Assembly: GCA_949287655.1 (NCBI GenBank)
Contig: CASEHD010000004.1
Span: forward strand, 55-64,054
Origin: an uncultured Christensenella sp.
GTDB taxonomy: Bacteria; Bacillota; Clostridia; Christensenellales; UBA3700
DNA length: 64,000 bases
Direction of reading: 5' to 3'
A model generated the notes under the pieces. It was not told the DNA's origin and searched no databases. It was given only the letters and a program-made list of their open reading frames with translations. Positions within the stretch are counted from its first letter, which is position 1, and every line of letters starts with the position of its first letter. A program made the position numbers and the translations under genes. Positions 57,581 through 64,000 of this stretch are shown piece after piece.

Positions 57581-58417
57581 TTACTTTATTCTTGAGATAA
57601 GATAGGGAAGTTCTTTTTCAAACTTCACGCCGTACCAATGGCTGTCGTCGTCCATCGTGCCGGCGATGGTCTTTACGGTGTAGTCCGCAGCGATCGCGGC
57701 GCTGTCGTAGACGCTTTTGCCGTTCATGAACGCGCCGACGAAAGCTGAAGCGTAGACGTCTCCGGTGCCGTGCGACATACGCGGCAGCTTATCGTTGAAA
57801 TAGTATTCGACTTTTTTGCTCGCGCAGTCATAGACGGCTACGCCCAGCTTTTTCGGGTCGAACGACACGCCCGTCAGCACGACTTTTTTGCAGCCGAGCC
57901 CTGCGAGTTTGCTTAGAAGCCCGAGGATATATTTTTCGTCGTATTCCGTTCTGAATTCCATGCCGGTCATAAGGCACGCTTCGGTAATGTTGGGCAGGAT
58001 CACGTCGGCGACAGAGCAAAGCCTTGCCATGTCTTTGGGGAAGTCGTCGGGGAAACCCTTGTAAAGCACGCCGCCGTCCGCCATCGCGGGGTCGACGATT
58101 ATCGCGCCGTCCTTTTCAAGGTGGCGGTCGATTATTTTGAGTATCAGGTCGACCTGTTCGCGGCTGCCGAGGTAACCGGTATAGATCGCTTTAAACGTGA
58201 TGTTTTCCTTGCTCCAATGTTCGGATATGGGTTCGATATCGCAGGTAAGGTCGCGGAAAGTCCAGCCGGGCTTGAACGCGGTATGAGTGCTGAGCACGGC
58301 GGTGGGCAAAACGCAGGTCTCTATCCCGCAGGCTGAGATGACGGGCAGCGCGACCGTCAGAGAGCATTGTCCCACGCACGATATATCTTGTACGGTCAAA
58401 ATCTTTTCTTTGGACAT
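57581..58417 (-). CDS. pdxK: Pyridoxal/pyridoxamine kinase
   Basis: QDISCVGQCSL, LSTHT, TGYLGS, DPAMAD, PNITEA, GTGDVYAS. Confidence 0.85.
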   Translation of the reverse strand: MSKEKILTVQDISCVGQCSLTVALPVISACGIETCVLPTAVLSTHTAFKPGWTFRDLTCDIEPISEHWSKENITFKAIYTGYLGSREQVDLILKIIDRHLEKDGAIIVDPAMADGGVLYKGFPDDFPKDMARLCSVADVILPNITEACLMTGMEFRTEYDEKYILGLLSKLAGLGCKKVVLTGVSFDPKKLGVAVYDCASKKVEYYFNDKLPRMSHGTGDVYASAFVGAFMNGKSVYDSAAIAADYTVKTIAGTMDDDSHWYGVKFEKELPYLISRIK

Positions 58418-58825
58418 AGTCAATACTCCTTTTGCAATATATTGATATTATTATAACGGCGCGGGCGCAAACAGTCAATTAAATAGCGGTTTTTCCGTTT
58501 ATTTATGCGGCGTTTTCAGACTTTTCGGCAATTAAGAGTGTGATATTTTTCAGCGTCATCCCGGTATATTTTTTAAACGTGTCGTTGAAGTGTCTCTGCG
58601 ACGAAAACCCCTGGTATTCGATTGTTTCGGCTTCCGTTTAACGCAGCCGACAAAGACATAGCCGGCGAGATAAAAGTCAATGCAATTATTCCGTCAAAGA
58701 GACCTTCCGTCCGGAGCCTTACTCATAATACATCCTTTATAAGCAGACACGCGCGCTTGGCAAAATTCGTGCGGGTTTGTTTTGTGTGGAGTTGCAATAT
58801 TATATTCGAAATCGCTGATAAATTG

Positions 58826-58854
58826 TTGAAATTCAAGTGCGTATATGCTATAAT
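58826..58854 (+). promoter_or_regulatory. Sigma-A promoter of the defence operon
   Basis: TTGAAA-N17-TATAAT with extended TG, upstream of the HTH gene. Confidence 0.7.
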
Positions 58855-58890
58855 TGTTTTAATCAATATTTTAGACGGAGAGTGACCCAT

Positions 58891-59115
58891 ATGGCGATCA
58901 GCTACAATAAGTTATGGAAATTGCTCATCGACAAGGGAATGACAAAGACGCAAATGCGCCTTCGGGCAGATATTTCCACGACGACGCTTGCCAAACTCGG
59001 AAAAAATGAAACCGTTTCGATGGATGTCCTATTAAAGATCTGCAAATTACTTGACTGCAACGTCGGAGATATTATGGATGTTATCAACGAGGAGACAAGC
59101 AATGGCGACAAGTAA
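58891..59115 (+). CDS. Small Cro/C1-type (XRE, HTH_26-like) transcriptional regulator
   Basis: SYNKLWKLLID..M.K..L...A.IS..TLAKL.KNE.VS..VL.KIC..L.C.VGDIM. Confidence 0.9.
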   Translation: MAISYNKLWKLLIDKGMTKTQMRLRADISTTTLAKLGKNETVSMDVLLKICKLLDCNVGDIMDVINEETSNGDK

Positions 59116-59932
59116 GAAACTTGAAATTATCTACCATAACGGACAGCCCGACGGCATCCGATCGATCAGGCGTCATCTTTCAACTATGACTACCTATGTC
59201 ATACCGCGGCCCCTGCTTGCCGAGGCAAAGAAGATCACAGGCATCAGCCGTCCAGGTATTTACTACCTCATCAACGAAAACGACGAAAATGAGATCGCGC
59301 AGATCTACATAGGGCAAACGCGCAACGGAGTTGTCCGTCTGGACGATCATAATCGTTTCAAAGATTTTTGGAATAAGGCAATCATGTTCCTTGCCGACAG
59401 CAAGACGTTCTCCCTCGATATGATCAGCGGGCTGGAAGAATACGCCATTATCAAAGCGCACGAATCCAACCGCTATAAGGTGGAGAATTCCGTCAAGCCC
59501 AAGTATGAAATCGATGAGTACGATCTCCCTTCCATTGAAGAGGTGTACGAGGAAATACAGTTCATCATGGCGACACAGGGTTATAAGCTGGACAATGCAA
59601 GGGCAAGCCTGAATGAATCGTCTGTTTTCCATACGACGCGCAACAGTATAAAAGCATACGGCGTTTATGGCGGCGATAAGTTTCAGGTGTTGGAAGGTTC
59701 GGAAGTCAATCTTGCGAAACCGGCGAATCTTGAAAAGTATAACAAACAGCGCAAAGAGTTGCTTGAAAAAGGAGATATCATCCGGCAAGCGGATAAGTAT
59801 ATTTTGAAAGTTACGCTTGAATTCAACACACCGAGCGGCGCCGGAGAATTTATCCTCGGCGGCTCGATCAACGGCTGGACGGAATGGAAAGACAAAGAGG
59901 GTAAAACCTTGGACGAGATTTATAGAAAGTAA
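59102..59932 (+). CDS. GIY-YIG nuclease with C-terminal DUF4357 (RAMA-like) domain
   Basis: PGIYYL...IYIGQT, RL..H, KDFW and the catalytic LE; C-terminal F.VL.GS, F.TPS.A..FILGGS.NGW.EWK. Confidence 0.82.
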   Translation: MATSKKLEIIYHNGQPDGIRSIRRHLSTMTTYVIPRPLLAEAKKITGISRPGIYYLINENDENEIAQIYIGQTRNGVVRLDDHNRFKDFWNKAIMFLADSKTFSLDMISGLEEYAIIKAHESNRYKVENSVKPKYEIDEYDLPSIEEVYEEIQFIMATQGYKLDNARASLNESSVFHTTRNSIKAYGVYGGDKFQVLEGSEVNLAKPANLEKYNKQRKELLEKGDIIRQADKYILKVTLEFNTPSGAGEFILGGSINGWTEWKDKEGKTLDEIYRK

Positions 59933-59948
59933 GGGAGACAAAAAATTT

Positions 59949-60905
59949 ATGAAAAAAGCTTTAATAGTTGGAATTGATAATTATTTGAAAGTGTCAGACC
60001 TTAATGGCTGTGTAAATGACGCTCACGATGTTGCAAACGTTTTATCGCGAAACGCAGATGGCTCTTTAAATTTTGATATAAAAATAATGACTTCGACTTC
60101 AGAAAACAATATTGTAACTAAATATGAATTAGAGGAAGCGATTAAGGAACTTTTCTCTGGGGATGATGAAATTGCGCTATTTTATTTTTCCGGACATGGA
60201 TATACCGAAGATAATAATGGATATATCATTCCTTCTGATATTCAATTGCCTGGACGCAATGGAATTAAAATGGATGATATTATGCAATGGTGTAATAAGT
60301 CTAAAGTAAAAAATAAAATACTTATATTTGATTGTTGCCATGCAGGGGCTGTCGGCGATGATAAATATTTTAGCGGAAATTCAATAATCGGTGAAGGGGT
60401 TACAATTTTAAGCGCTTGTACAAAAGGGCAATATGCGCTTGAACACTCACATCATGGTGTATTTACACAGTTGCTGGTAGATGCTTTAAATGGAAGCGGT
60501 GCAAACATTCTGGGCCAAATTACGCCTGGAAGTGTTTATGCGCATATCGATCAATCGCTAGGCGCTTGGTCACAGCGTCCGGTTTTTAAAACAAATGTTG
60601 AGCAATTTGTTTGCTTGCGCCAAACTTACCCCTCTATCAGTAGCTCAGATTTAAGACAGATAACAAATATATTCAAAAACCCATCCGAAGAATTTACCCT
60701 TGATCCATCCTACGAACCAGATTGCGAATATGCACAAGCAGATCACACTCGTATATTTGGCATTCTACAAAATATGGTTCATGTAAATTTAGTTATTCCT
60801 GTAGGAGAAAGGCATATGTACTATGCGGCAATGAATAGCAAATCTTGTAAATTAACGGCCTTGGGCGCACACTATTGGAACTTAGTTAAAAATAATAGAT
60901 TATAA
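59949..60905 (+). CDS. Caspase-like (peptidase C14) protease with an extra C-terminal domain
   Basis: KALIVGID.Y, L.GCVNDA, FYFSGHG (catalytic His), DCCHAG (catalytic Cys), GVFT..L..AL.G, plus a ~90 aa C-terminal extension. Confidence 0.9.
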   Translation: MKKALIVGIDNYLKVSDLNGCVNDAHDVANVLSRNADGSLNFDIKIMTSTSENNIVTKYELEEAIKELFSGDDEIALFYFSGHGYTEDNNGYIIPSDIQLPGRNGIKMDDIMQWCNKSKVKNKILIFDCCHAGAVGDDKYFSGNSIIGEGVTILSACTKGQYALEHSHHGVFTQLLVDALNGSGANILGQITPGSVYAHIDQSLGAWSQRPVFKTNVEQFVCLRQTYPSISSSDLRQITNIFKNPSEEFTLDPSYEPDCEYAQADHTRIFGILQNMVHVNLVIPVGERHMYYAAMNSKSCKLTALGAHYWNLVKNNRL

Positions 60906-60917
60906 GGAGATCTACAA

Positions 60918-61304
60918 ATGAAAAAACGTGCTTTTATTAGCTTTGATTATGATCATGATGAGGAATTAAAACAAGCATTGATAGGGCAATCTAAAAATCC
61001 TGATTCTCCATTTTCCATTAATGATATGTCGATCAAACAAGCAATTGATGGAAACTGGAAATATTATGCGAGACAAAAAATTAAGCAATGTGATGTTGTA
61101 ATTGTAATTTGCGGGAAATATACAAATACAGCTCGTGGAGTAACCGCAGAACTAAGCATTACTCAAGAAGAAAAAATCCCTTACTTTTTGTTATGTGGTC
61201 GTGCGGACGGAAAGGTCGTTAAACCATTAGGGGCATATGCTTCAGATAAGATTTACAAATGGACTTGGGATAATCTTAAAGCTTTGATCAATGGGGCCCG
61301 ATAA
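60918..61304 (+). CDS. Short TIR-domain protein (ThsB/MTH538/DUF1863-like)
   Basis: AFISFDYD.D box, D.S.K, W....R..I..CDVVIVICG..T..A.GV..EL with the putative catalytic Glu, W.W.NL end. Confidence 0.85.
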   Translation: MKKRAFISFDYDHDEELKQALIGQSKNPDSPFSINDMSIKQAIDGNWKYYARQKIKQCDVVIVICGKYTNTARGVTAELSITQEEKIPYFLLCGRADGKVVKPLGAYASDKIYKWTWDNLKALINGAR

Positions 61305-61353
61305 TTTTTATCCATCAACTTCCGATTGTATTATGCGAACATAGGAGAGCACA

Positions 61354-63717
61354 ATGGGCATTATAGATAAAAAGCAAATGACCGAAGAGGACATCAAGTT
61401 GAATTTTATCACGCCGGCAATTTTATCAAAGGGCTGGCAGGATAAAATCACGATGGAAACTCAGCTTAGATTTACAGATGGCAAGGTAAATCTCCGTGGA
61501 AACAAAGTCAGCCGGGAAACGCCTAAAAAAGCGGACTATGTGCTTTATTTTGCAAAAAACAATCCGCTCGCCGTGGTTGAAGCAAAGGACAATAACCACA
61601 GCGTGTCTTTCGGCATGCAGCAGGCAAAGCTCTATGCCAAAATGCTTGACGTCAAGTTTGCATACAGCTCTAACGGCGATGCCTTCCAAGAGTTTGATTT
61701 TATTACGGGAGTTGAGCGCGAAATTGCGTTGGACGAGTTTCCTTCTCCCGAAGAATTGTTTGCCCGCTATCAAAGCGAAATAAACGACGGACAAGGGTTA
61801 TCGGAGAAAGAACTTGCTCTCATCAATCAGCCGTATTATACAAGCCAAAACACTTATCCGCCGAGATATTATCAGCAGGTTGCCGTCAACCGCACAATAG
61901 ACGCCATCGCAAAGGGGCAAAACCGCATTTTGCTTGTCATGGCGACGGGAACGGGGAAGACCTATACCGCTTTCCAAATCGTATATCGCTTGTTGCAGAG
62001 CGGCGCAAAGCAAAAGATACTTTATCTTGCCGACCGCAATAATCTTGTCGATCAGACGATAAGCGGCGATTTTAAGCCGCTTGAAAAAGTCACACACAAA
62101 ATCAATTTTGCAAAAGACGACCGCACCACGATTACTTCCCATCAGGTATATTTCTCCCTCTACCAACAGCTTGTCGGAAACAAGACAACCGAAGAAGAGA
62201 CGGACGAAGAAACGCTTGCGCACTATAAGCAACTGTTTGATAAGGATTTCTTCGATCTGATTATAGTGGACGAATGTCATCGCGGCAGCGCAAAGGAAGA
62301 AAGCCGTTGGCGTAAAGTGCTGGAATACTTCTCCTCTGCAACGCAAATAGGCATGACCGCGACGCCGAAAGAAACCGCTTACATATCCAATATCGATTAT
62401 TTCGGTGAGCCGATTTATAAGTACAGTTTGAAAGAAGGCATCGACGACGGTTTTCTCGCTCCTTTCAAGGTCATACGCATAAGGACGGATATTGATGACG
62501 AATGGCGTCCTCGCAAAGGTCAACGCGACATAAATGGTTATGAAATCGAAGATCGAATCTACAACAACAGCGATTACGATTACAACATCATCATTCAGGA
62601 CCGTATCGACATGGTTGCAACCGAGATCACAAATTATCTCAAAGCGACCGACAGAATGGCAAAGACGATCGTTTTCTGTGCAACGGAAGATGCAGCAGAA
62701 CGGATGCGTGTTGCTCTTACAAAGTTGAACGCCGATATGTGCGCGGAAAATCCGGATTACGTAGTGCGGATCACTGGCAGCGACGATTACGGCAAGAGCA
62801 AGCTTGACTATTTTATATCCGTATCTGCTAAATACCCGGTGATCGCCACTACTTCCAAGCTGCTTTCTACCGGTGCAGACTGCAAAATGGTTAAACTGAT
62901 TGTCATTGATGAAATGATCGGTTCCATGACGGAATTTAAGCAAATCATCGGTCGTGGAACGAGACTGCGTTATGAGGACGGAAAAACACATTTCGTTATC
63001 ATGGATTTCCGCGGCGTGACCAGATTGTTTGCTGATCCCGAGTGGGACGGACCGATCGAACAAGATGACAAATTCCGTCATGTGCAGCCCAAAGAGCCGG
63101 GCGACGATCCGGTCATTCCGCCTGCCCCGCCGGTGGAGCAGAAATATAAATATGTTGTAGACAGCCGCGGCTGCAAAGTGACGGTTTCGCAGCGCATGGT
63201 TTCCGTTTACGATACCGACGGAAAACTCTTGCGGCAGGAAAGCATTATCGATTATACTAAGGCGAATATTTACGGCACATTCTCTTCTTTGGACAATTTT
63301 ATTTTGCAATGGTCTGCCGAAGAAAAGAAAGCCAAGATCCAAGAACTTTTCAATGAACACGGCATTGACTTGGAACAAATCAAAGCCGATGAAGGTATGA
63401 GCGATGTCGATGATTTTGATTTTATCTGTCATATCGCCTTCGACCAGAAGCCTTTGACGCGGAGAGAACGCGCTGAAAACGTTAAAAAACGCAACGTATT
63501 TGCTAAATACGGCGGCGAAGCAAGAGCTGTGCTTGAAGCGTTGTTGGAAAAGTATGCGGACAGCGGCATTTACGAAATCGAAGATATGGATATTCTCAAA
63601 CTCGATCCGTTTGTCAAGTTCGGAAAACCCGCAAAAATCGCTTCGTTATTCGGCGGCAGAGAGGGTTATATCCGAGCGGTAAGAGAACTGGAACAAGAAA
63701 TTTATAAGGCGGCATAA
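61354..63717 (+). CDS. hsdR: Type I restriction endonuclease subunit R (EcoAI/EcoEI-like)
   Basis: ADY...VEAK nuclease motif, QQA..YA, MATGTGKT, DECHRG, TATP, QIIGRGTR, EcoEI-R-type C-terminus. Confidence 0.95.
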   Translation: MGIIDKKQMTEEDIKLNFITPAILSKGWQDKITMETQLRFTDGKVNLRGNKVSRETPKKADYVLYFAKNNPLAVVEAKDNNHSVSFGMQQAKLYAKMLDVKFAYSSNGDAFQEFDFITGVEREIALDEFPSPEELFARYQSEINDGQGLSEKELALINQPYYTSQNTYPPRYYQQVAVNRTIDAIAKGQNRILLVMATGTGKTYTAFQIVYRLLQSGAKQKILYLADRNNLVDQTISGDFKPLEKVTHKINFAKDDRTTITSHQVYFSLYQQLVGNKTTEEETDEETLAHYKQLFDKDFFDLIIVDECHRGSAKEESRWRKVLEYFSSATQIGMTATPKETAYISNIDYFGEPIYKYSLKEGIDDGFLAPFKVIRIRTDIDDEWRPRKGQRDINGYEIEDRIYNNSDYDYNIIIQDRIDMVATEITNYLKATDRMAKTIVFCATEDAAERMRVALTKLNADMCAENPDYVVRITGSDDYGKSKLDYFISVSAKYPVIATTSKLLSTGADCKMVKLIVIDEMIGSMTEFKQIIGRGTRLRYEDGKTHFVIMDFRGVTRLFADPEWDGPIEQDDKFRHVQPKEPGDDPVIPPAPPVEQKYKYVVDSRGCKVTVSQRMVSVYDTDGKLLRQESIIDYTKANIYGTFSSLDNFILQWSAEEKKAKIQELFNEHGIDLEQIKADEGMSDVDDFDFICHIAFDQKPLTRRERAENVKKRNVFAKYGGEARAVLEALLEKYADSGIYEIEDMDILKLDPFVKFGKPAKIASLFGGREGYIRAVRELEQEIYKAA

Positions 63718-63720
63718 CAT

Positions 63721-64000
63721 ATGAGCAACATTTCCGGATTTATTAAACGCTTGCGCGACATAATGCGCAACGATGCAGGTATCAACGGCGACGCACAGCG
63801 CATCGAGCAAATTGCCTGGCTTTTGTTCTTAAAAGTCTACGACACCAAGGAGCAAGACTGGGAATTTGAGGACGACAAGTATCAATCGATTATCCCCGAT
63901 CCCTGCCGCTGGCGCAATTGGGCGCATGAAGAGGGCGGAAAAGGCATGACAAGTGACGCACTTTTGAATTTTGTCAACAATATTCTCTTTCCTGTTTTGA
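63721..64000 (+). CDS. hsdM: Type I restriction-modification methyltransferase subunit M, N-terminal part (cut by the window end)
   Basis: My translation gives MSNISGFIKRLRDIMRNDAGINGDAQRIEQIAWLLFLKVYD..., the typical EcoAI-type HsdM N-terminus. It starts 3 bp after hsdR and is not in the supplied ORF track. Confidence 0.9.
   Translation, partial: MSNISGFIKRLRDIMRNDAGINGDAQRIEQIAWLLFLKVYDTKEQDWEFEDDKYQSIIPDPCRWRNWAHEEGGKGMTSDALLNFVNNILFPVL

Follow-up and report, generated by a model that had tools for sequence, protein, structure and literature searches.

A caspase-like protease and short TIR gene pair, a probable type IV Thoeris module, within a probable type I restriction-modification operon of an uncultured gut Clostridia member

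A 64,000-nucleotide stretch of DNA from an uncultured Christensenella sp. (GenBank assembly GCA_949287655.1, contig CASEHD010000004.1; the whole stretch is called the window in the following) encodes at positions 59949–61304 of the forward strand a caspase-like protease followed by a short stand-alone TIR protein. Judged by sequence and gene arrangement, this pair very probably constitutes a type IV Thoeris abortive-infection module, composed of the caspase-like protease ThsE and the short TIR protein ThsB. In the accessible parts of the describing preprint, type IV was defined by a caspase-like protease homologous to PsCaspase with TIR_2 or ThsB within one gene, and detection used a hidden Markov model derived from PsCaspase together with the same neighbourhood rule (Rousset et al., 10.1101/2024.10.24.620036). 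The effector name ThsE stems from a later study (Yirmiya et al., 10.64898/2025.12.03.692087, as far as accessible). The pair agrees with the published definition in every sequence and architectural criterion examined and is, on these grounds, a further member of a system already known. This identity had been proposed from the letters of the DNA before any database was searched (the original prediction), and it is supported by all parts of the published definition that could be tested.

Type IV Thoeris has already been described, validated and reported in hundreds of genomes, and as a system the pair adds little. Its value lies in its context: it places type IV Thoeris, with reversed gene order, in uncultured gut Clostridia, and it is built into a type I restriction-modification (R-M) operon, following genes for a helix-turn-helix (HTH) regulator and a probable nuclease, in a slot that appears to exchange defence cargo between nearly identical operons and that is a more interesting lead than the pair itself. 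The parts worth following are the reversed order, the embedding in the operon and, above all, the swappable defence slot.

The protease and the TIR protein

The thsE-like gene (59949–60905, +) encodes 318 amino acids (aa) when read from its ATG; the mechanically generated list of open reading frames (ORFs) begins it at an upstream TTG (59817). The protein matches Pfam Peptidase_C14 PF00656 with an E-value of 1.2e-24 (87.7 bits, cut-off 21.4) and the PADLOC 'caspase' model PDLC02987 with E 1e-22, and the C14 domain covers approximately residues 1–205. It possesses the motifs FSGHGY, containing His83, and FDCCHAG, containing Cys129 and Cys130, in line with the intact C14 protease with SGHG and DCCHAG that had been predicted. 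As FDCCHAG aligns with FDSCHSG of yeast metacaspase-1, the cysteine of which falls on Cys130 and is replaced by alanine in the mutant entry 4f6p, the catalytic cysteine was placed at Cys130; furthermore, GCVNDA of the protease aligns with GCINDA of the metacaspase. His83 and Cys130 are invariant in 22/22 aligned homologues and correspond to the effector dyad of type IV Thoeris. Asp24 and Asp128 are invariant in the aligned homologues as well, and both lie where metacaspases have the acidic residues of their S1 pocket. Residues ~210–318 match no Pfam family at E ≤ 0.1, yet they are strongly conserved in the 22-sequence alignment with many positions invariant in 22/22 homologues, in agreement at the sequence level with the conserved, Pfam-less C-terminal region described in the Rousset preprint. 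A Protein Atlas search with the C-terminal part of a Vibrio homologue returned unnamed clusters only, with scores of 0.85–0.88 that lie below the lead threshold. Relatives of the protease are abundant: 7996 of 8000 scored candidates are homologous, and most of the 120 listed have 316–318 aa, with identities of 54–60% in Vibrio, Bacillus and Photobacterium as well as in numerous metagenomes.

The thsB-like gene (60918–61304, +) begins 12 bases past the caspase stop codon, is preceded by GGAG and encodes 128 aa. It was assigned by Pfam ThsB_TIR PF08937 (E 6.2e-8, 33.4 bits, cut-off 21.2) and by a profile of the family, and thereby represents a ThsB-family gene on the same strand at a distance of 12 nucleotides (nt) from the caspase, as expected for the TIR of a type IV system. 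GVTAEL occupies residues 74–79 and includes Glu78. Ser38 and Glu78 are the sole invariant columns in 71/71 aligned TIRs, and Glu78 is present in 92/93 sequences; the stand-alone 128-aa TIR with a glutamate in GVTAEL that had been noticed 12 bp behind the protease could thus be confirmed. A search of the PDB with the single TIR sequence gave no match at E ≤ 10. The profile of 71 TIR sequences matched 8fz9 (E 4.1e-10), which is BcTir according to the paper found for that structure, 6lhy (DUF1863/ThsB, E 2.1e-6) and 9b7d (ThsB1, E 2.2e-6). Further matches were obtained for 8wcf and for the ThsB structure 9uv0. In the profile alignments Glu78, which stands for the catalytic glutamate of the type IV TIRs, aligns with the glutamates of 8fz9, 8wcf and 6lhy; in the latter the glutamate lies within 'VRYEI' and is presumably the catalytic E85 of BcThsB.

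It was reported that defence is abolished by PsCaspase C129A and by a PsTIR glutamate mutant (accessible text of Rousset et al., 10.1101/2024.10.24.620036). As the same text names the latter E79Q in the results and the figure legend and E89Q in the western-blot methods, comparisons of residue numbers with PsTIR are uncertain. The E. coli plasmid NZ_CP024822.1 encodes a TIR protein (124 aa) followed by a caspase (317 aa), with full-length identities to the window proteins of 31% and 49%, respectively, and the catalytic cysteine of the plasmid caspase is residue 129, the same number as in PsCaspase C129A. This pair, not necessarily identical with the tested one of E. coli 328, was used as a proxy for the validated systems; it was the sole match among 5426 complete E. 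coli genomes, obtained with a distant Leclercia DNA query, and a search of the literature library on its protein accessions returned nothing relevant. On this clinical plasmid the pair (L085, 98152–99489) is located directly after RelE/ParE toxin-antitoxin genes and adjoins Tn3/IS26 remnants and genes of the mph(A) region.

Co-occurrence of the two gene families

The pairing was followed in the best 80 of 579 relatives of the caspase, taken from one genome per species and spread over many bacterial phyla and one archaeon. With the window TIR only, phmmer detected 60 ORFs in 53/80 caspase loci, and an iterated TIR profile detected a same-strand TIR-like ORF at most 1.5 kb from the caspase in 72/80. 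In L040, L066, L075 and L080 the ORF caller had over-extended the caspase start, and a strong TIR match ends at that start; with these four loci added, a short TIR adjoins the caspase on the same strand in 76/80. L061, L063 and L072 contain no paired TIR and L023 lies at a contig edge. The E-values of the TIR profile are partly circular because the profile was made from its hits; Pfam confirmed TIR_2 or ThsB_TIR on samples. Both the co-occurrence of the two families and the comparison with PADLOC and profile models, which had been suggested as checks, came out in favour of the type IV assignment, with 76 paired loci in the one case and with PDLC02987 and a ThsB_TIR score above the cut-off in the other.

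Loci with a single TIR account for 52/80 as binned and for 56 with the four mis-binned loci added. The original prediction had seen a difficulty in the lack of a separate sensor domain; this concern falls away, as a 'short TIR-domain protein' is employed by the validated systems too (Rousset et al., 10.1101/2024.10.24.620036, in the accessible text) and single-TIR loci form the majority. About 20 of the 80 loci contain at least two TIR-profile genes, with at least two very different TIR classes among them, and in some loci of the caspase family a further TIR_2 gene follows downstream or a gene of 160–200 aa without annotation is present. Two TIR classes accompany the caspase family, with identities to the window TIR of 13–20% and 30–60%, respectively. 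The usual order is TIR followed by caspase, and a TIR located only downstream, as in the window, is found just in L001 and L002, the closest relatives. Two further traits were considered for the family and rejected. A conserved third gene downstream of the caspase in other phyla dissolved into many unrelated groups among 38 candidates, ten of which were scanned and yielded two TIRs, one DUF6338 protein and seven proteins without a match. A general linkage to type I R-M was likewise dismissed, as a relative of the window-type hsdR lies near 2/80 and the GIY-YIG gene discussed below near 1/80 of the caspases.

In G030, which belongs to the same family, locus L097 (G030:C2, 3775–5532) encodes in canonical order a TIR of 127 aa, a TIR of 128 aa and a caspase of 327 aa. 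Identity to the window proteins is 71% for the 128-aa TIR and just 49% for the caspase, and the two kinds of module seem to have changed partners between systems. The genome from which the window originates encodes a second, stand-alone protein of ~245 aa with two TIR-like domains on contig C6 at ~35.4–36.2 kb (L082:1033–1773, −). It matches TIR_2 with E 3.4e-23 and ThsB_TIR with E 5.7e-8, and there is no evident effector gene beside it; its neighbours were read from their translations and are presumably rsmG-like and parB-like.

The surrounding operon and the variable segment

The operon begins with a gene for a Cro/C1-type HTH protein of 74 aa (58891–59115, +; Pfam HTH_26 E 2.5e-19), which is followed by a gene encoding GIY-YIG and DUF4357 domains (59102–59932, +; Pfam DUF4357 E 3.2e-18; PADLOC PDC-S14 E 1.9e-64). 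The probable ATG of the latter at 59102 overlaps the stop codon of the HTH gene, and the queries used the protein from residue 8 onward (59123); its GIY-YIG Pfam domain reaches E 2.1e-4 and 22.0 bits, slightly below the cut-off of 22.6. Downstream of the pair there are an hsdR leader of 49 nt (61305–61353, +), delimited by alignment with L001 and G060, the gene hsdR for a type I restriction subunit of 787 aa (61354–63717, +; Pfam ResIII, EcoEI_R_C and HSDR_N; PADLOC REase_I E 3.2e-281) and the start of hsdM (63721–64000, +), which is interrupted by the window end and the L001 orthologue of which carries HsdM_N and N6_Mtase. The type I R-M genes at the locus comprise a complete hsdR and the start of hsdM only: the contig ends 143 bases past the window, so that hsdM is cut and hsdS is not on the contig. 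In L145, a near-identical operon from a metagenome, the order continues with hsdM, YhcG/DUF1016 and hsdS.

The gaps between the GIY-YIG, caspase, TIR, hsdR and hsdM genes amount to 16, 12, 49 and 3 nt. A promoter-like site ahead of the HTH gene (58826–58854, +) is composed of TTGAAA, a 17-nt spacer and TATAAT with a TG before the −10 element (extended −10); with 11/12 matches it has the highest plus-strand score in 58400–61500. It is likely to be the operon promoter, a function that is read from its position only since the number of promoter-like sites in the region, nine compared with 8.9 ± 2.9 in shuffles, shows no excess. A terminator scan of 58400–61500 detected no site between the genes, where the gaps measure 16, 12 and 49 nt, in keeping with the earlier observation that the pair sits between a GIY-YIG gene and hsdR without a visible terminator. 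The same region contains five terminator-like sites compared with 2.6 ± 1.7 in shuffles, four of which lie within ORFs: the caspase ORF holds two that are weak (60508–60531 and 60561–60579) and the GIY-YIG gene two near 59780, the fifth (58485–58499) being located upstream of the operon. The hairpin in the caspase ORF at 60561–60589 (+) consists of 6 pairs followed by CGGTTTTTAA; it is terminator-like, and the number of such sites is not significantly above that of the shuffles. Transcription of the cassette and the type I R-M genes probably starts jointly at the promoter in front of the HTH gene. The proposed nesting in a type I R-M operon is supported by this promoter-like site, by the short gaps, by the lack of terminator-like sites in these and by the same gene order in L001 and in metagenomes. 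To the left of the promoter, at 58510–58680 (−), there is a stop-interrupted reverse-strand tail '...GFSSQRHFNDTFKKYTGMTLKNI...'. It seems to resemble the C-terminus of an AraC-type regulator, and possibly it belongs to a gene that was truncated upon arrival of the island.

In its composition the two-gene cassette is foreign; it brings its own ribosome-binding sites and is inserted as cargo between the GIY-YIG/DUF4357 gene and the hsdR leader. Its GC content is 35.8%, with 27.3% (caspase) and 25.6% (TIR) at third codon positions (GC3), compared with 46.9% GC and 58.5% GC3 in the GIY-YIG gene, 45.8% GC and 52.2% GC3 in hsdR and 51.5% GC in window positions 1–58400, by which the predicted AT-richness relative to the core genes was corroborated. 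Among 1253 windows of cassette length in the 64 kb, equally GC-poor ones number two, and both overlap the cassette. A DNA query with the cassette found no match in 14 genomes of the same genus (completeness 78–96%). The same order of GIY-YIG gene, caspase, TIR, hsdR and hsdM is present in L001, a Clostridiales metagenome-assembled genome (MAG), in which the cassette proteins are 90–91% and the flanking proteins 80–81% identical to those of the window; the GC3 of the cassette is equal in both hosts (26–28%) despite differing flanks. Non-synonymous substitutions per site (dN) between the cassette genes of window and L001 amount to 0.046–0.057 and synonymous ones (dS) to at least 1.3. With dN far smaller than dS, purifying selection acts on both genes, and the two copies did not arise by a recent duplication. 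The suggested recent acquisition is supported by the GC3 contrast and by the lack of a match in the 14 same-genus genomes, yet the L001 copy is old, as its dS of at least 1.3 indicates. A search for boundary repeats found only short pairs of 10–21 nt, as expected by chance, from which no insertion mechanism is readable.

Alignments define the variable segment between the stop codon of the GIY-YIG gene on the left and a position just before the conserved ~50-nt hsdR leader on the right. The 49-nt leader is partly conserved in L001 and in G060, and as it is kept in G060 despite a different preceding cargo, it is part of the operon backbone and forms the right-hand boundary of the slot. Orthologues of the GIY-YIG/DUF4357 protein are 73–97% identical. 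Among genomes of the same taxonomic order, the orthologous position differs in content. G060 carries an 832-aa TIR-NLR in the slot (PADLOC E 2.6e-77), with HTH, GIY-YIG and HsdR proteins that are 62%, 77% and 82% identical to those of the window. In G192 the slot contains a CAP12/Pycsar-type TIR (PDC-S35) and a TPR protein, and in G200 once more a caspase, with 96% identity across the 56 residues that remain up to the contig end. In G300 and G268 it is empty, the GIY-YIG gene being followed directly by an hsdR of another family. The proposed comparison of this junction in related genomes thus revealed the caspase-TIR pair, other defence modules or nothing at the orthologous position.

A metagenome scan with the GIY-YIG protein, covering the best 80 of 526 relatives with mechanical ORF calls, gave 55 loci with cargo behind the GIY-YIG gene, 18 with hsdR or hsdM directly behind it and seven that were too short to classify, counts that are not independent events because the loci were not dereplicated. 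Within the 55 cargo loci a caspase is present in 16, with the TIR seen in 14 and cut off by contig ends in two. In L176 and L214 the caspase is split into consecutive ORFs (154+205 aa and 105+258 aa, respectively), which could reflect a frameshift or an assembly error, and some copies may decay. The remaining cargo consists of Schlafen/AlbA_2 (five loci), CAP12-type TIR with TPR, PDC-M50A with TIR, HipA-like and HAD-like PDC-S34 genes (four each), bSEFIR and helicase with DUF2290 (three each), PRTase-led cargo (two), multi-TIR and Metallophos-STAND (one each) and eight unannotated singletons. A PADLOC match at E ≤ 1e-5 was obtained for 10/10 cargo representatives tested, and 29/55 cargo loci contain a TIR or SEFIR gene. 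The multi-TIR locus and one PRTase-led locus (L204:11796–13229 and L163) encode a SIR2-STALD ThsA of type I Thoeris. As they carry several TIR genes together with ThsA behind the GIY-YIG gene, type I Thoeris here stands where the window has its type IV pair.

Fifteen operons with an HsdR at least 80% identical to that of the window contain five cargo types, and loci with a GIY-YIG protein 96–97% identical to that of the window hold five different cargos. Where the GIY-YIG protein is 75–97% and HsdR at least 80% identical, the slot contains caspase with TIR, CAP12-type TIR with TPR, bSEFIR, helicase with DUF2290, Metallophos-STAND or TIR-NLR, and elsewhere type I Thoeris, PDC-M50, Schlafen-like, HipA-like and PRTase genes are found behind the GIY-YIG gene. 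The caspase-TIR pair is also located upstream of two other hsdR families in metagenome loci, and L144 and L145 represent near-identical copies of the whole window operon. The HTH protein has a match in 31/80 metagenome GIY-YIG loci, and the 62%-identical orthologue heads the G060 operon. The GIY-YIG gene is not always linked to R-M, as some loci contain no detected R-M gene, e.g., the PDC-S34 group beside pcrA-ligA. That it is a constant upstream neighbour of the window-type hsdR was rejected, since it was found at 0/10 more distant hsdR relatives (52–73% identity); five of these were annotated and show Fic, AbiEi/AbiEii or KwaB upstream in three cases and ordinary genes in two.

Opinion on the view that the pair represents just one of several exchangeable cargos in a defence hotspot within the operon, in which the GIY-YIG/DUF4357 gene is followed after 6–114 nt either by R-M genes or by an abortive-infection module and R-M genes, is evenly balanced. 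The GIY-YIG gene, or the homology that it supplies, may drive the swapping of cargo. DUF4357 was reported to occur as an extra domain of GmrSD type IV restriction enzymes and of GIY-YIG proteins (Machnicka et al.), and according to a McrBC census it is one of the frequent fusion partners of McrB homologues. Because of these contexts the GIY-YIG/DUF4357 gene may itself encode a modification-dependent nuclease, and the operon would then have three layers. Text searches of the literature library returned no description of the reversed order, of the nested arrangement or of the GIY-YIG/DUF4357 slot, and supplementary lists of Thoeris systems may already contain this lineage or these operons. If the slot is real and co-transcribed, it would constitute a compact natural form of layered immunity, with restriction first and suicide second under one promoter. 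A true hotspot would mean that first-line restriction is expressed jointly with a second-line suicide module that can be swapped. In addition, a real slot would offer a cheap guilt-by-position route to new defence genes in gut Firmicutes, the eight singleton cargos being unannotated.

Proposed mechanism, alternatives and comparison with known systems

In the proposed mechanism, phage infection would cause the Glu78 site of the 128-aa TIR to turn nicotinamide adenine dinucleotide (NAD+) into a signal of the cyclic ADP-ribose (cADPR) type, most likely N7-cADPR. The signal would bind to the 318-aa protease at its conserved C-terminal domain, probably within a protease dimer, and turn on the His83/Cys130 dyad, upon which the active protease would cleave many cellular proteins after arginine and halt cell and phage. 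For the published system it was reported that the TIR product is N7-cADPR and that the activated protease is arginine-specific and promiscuous (Rousset et al., 10.1101/2024.10.24.620036, accessible parts). The accessible part of another study describes that T6 escapes via a mutated capsid vertex protein and that T4 encodes a signal sponge (Chen et al.). For the window pair, the sequence shows the domains, the catalytic residues, purifying selection, the systematic pairing of the families and the operon context, whereas it is inferred which signal is made and where it binds, after which residue the protease cuts and that phages are warded off.

Several points weigh against the assignment to type IV Thoeris. 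The gene order of the window is reversed compared with 74/76 paired loci, the Pfam score of the window TIR itself is modest with 33 bits, and homology to PsCaspase/PsTIR and EcCaspase/EcTIR is judged through the description in the paper and the E. coli plasmid proxy. The TIR sequence does not fix the product, because TIR clusters are shared among Thoeris types. The 128-aa TIR moreover gives weak SLOG/STALD matches (PADLOC ThsA, E 3.6e-5), from which a ligand-binding instead of a catalytic role is conceivable. Further doubt concerns expression. Assembled contigs of four chicken-gut metatranscriptome libraries match the cassette at 95–100% (60199–60446, 60364–60531, 60582–61058, which spans the caspase/TIR junction, and 61031–61317; 0–4 differences each) and also cover parts of the HTH and GIY-YIG genes and of hsdR, and stretches without coverage, e.g., 59656–60190, are uninformative either way. 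These contigs may be due to DNA carry-over, and one that spans two genes is no proof of a single transcript, so that they are a weak hint of expression of the cassette in the chicken gut. The bird-gut matches and the labels of the closest records, Clostridiales or Clostridia MAGs, agree with the gut-type clostridial lineage named in the original prediction.

Three other explanations have to be weighed against the type IV reading. It is rather unlikely that the architecture is the same and the messenger another one, such as 3'cADPR, 2'cADPR, canonical cADPR or a conjugate, to which the C-terminal domain would be tuned, in which case the pair would be Thoeris-like and not strictly an N7-cADPR system. 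This would fit the report that one TIR cluster can serve several Thoeris types (accessible part of Yirmiya et al., 10.64898/2025.12.03.692087), the identity of merely 31% between the TIRs of window and E. coli plasmid, the two very different TIR classes that pair with the caspase family and the combination of a 71%-identical TIR with a 49%-identical caspase in G030. However, the C-terminal domain of the effector is highly conserved, with its many positions invariant in 22/22, and aligns throughout with the E. coli plasmid homologue, and TIR lysates of other new Thoeris types failed to activate ThsE (Yirmiya et al., 10.64898/2025.12.03.692087, in the same accessible part).

That the small protein is no signal generator at all, acting either as a NAD+-depleting TIR effector or by direct contact as a sensor or regulator with TIR/SLOG fold, appears highly improbable: its very small size and the weak PADLOC/Pfam STALD/SLOG matches would suit such a role, but its invariant glutamate occupies the position of the catalytic glutamate of ThsB-type TIRs, the top profile matches are TIR enzymes of defence systems, and in the published system a filtered small-molecule fraction alone suffices to activate the protease (Rousset et al., 10.1101/2024.10.24.620036, as far as accessible). 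Slightest of all is the probability that the cassette is a silent or decaying passenger that has no current defence function in its host. The atypical codon composition, with a GC3 of 26–27% compared with 52–59% in the host context, and the caspase present as two ORFs in 2/16 metagenome copies could be explained in this way; against it stand two intact ORFs with all catalytic residues, a dN far below dS in comparison with L001, the near-identical copies in L144 and L145 and the RNA-library contigs that cover both genes. The assignment as a type IV Thoeris module is retained as very probable.

In comparison with other Thoeris systems, a SIR2- or TM-containing ThsA with SLOG/STALD, as expected for type I Thoeris, is absent from 58.4–64 kb, and the only STALD signal at the locus is the weak match within the 128-aa TIR. 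ThsB of type I Thoeris (6lhy, 9b7d) and BcTir of the BcTir/Tpr system (8fz9) share with the window TIR the PF08937 TIR-like fold and the aligned glutamate; they differ in length, with 138–195 aa compared with 128 aa, and in the effector, which is a SIR2-SLOG or TPR protein instead of a protease. Metacaspases and paracaspase (yeast Mca1 4f6o, MALT1 3v4o) resemble the window protease in the C14 fold, the His/Cys dyad and the motifs 'GCxNDA' and 'DxCHSG'. In contrast to these, the alignment is limited to the first ~150–180 residues of the protease, the C-terminal domain is unrelated, and activation of the window protease would come from a nucleotide signal.

Abortive-infection genes inside type I R-M loci are known from prrC in the EcoprrI locus and from the 'rlo' genes in Campylobacter hsd loci. 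The window operon resembles these and flanked defence hotspots in that a second-line cell-killing module lies within a first-line R-M system and the cargo is variable; it differs from them in its anchor, a GIY-YIG/DUF4357 gene upstream of hsdR, and in its mostly TIR-based cargo. The closest likeness is to type IV Thoeris of Pseudomonas sp. 1-7 and E. coli 328, with which the window pair shares the two-gene operon of a short TIR and a ~317-aa protease, the catalytic cysteine at ~129–130, the TIR glutamate at ~78–80 and the neighbourhood of defence genes. Unlike these, the window pair has the caspase gene before the TIR gene, its host is a member of the gut Clostridia, and the pair is embedded between a GIY-YIG/DUF4357 gene and hsdR instead of being free-standing.

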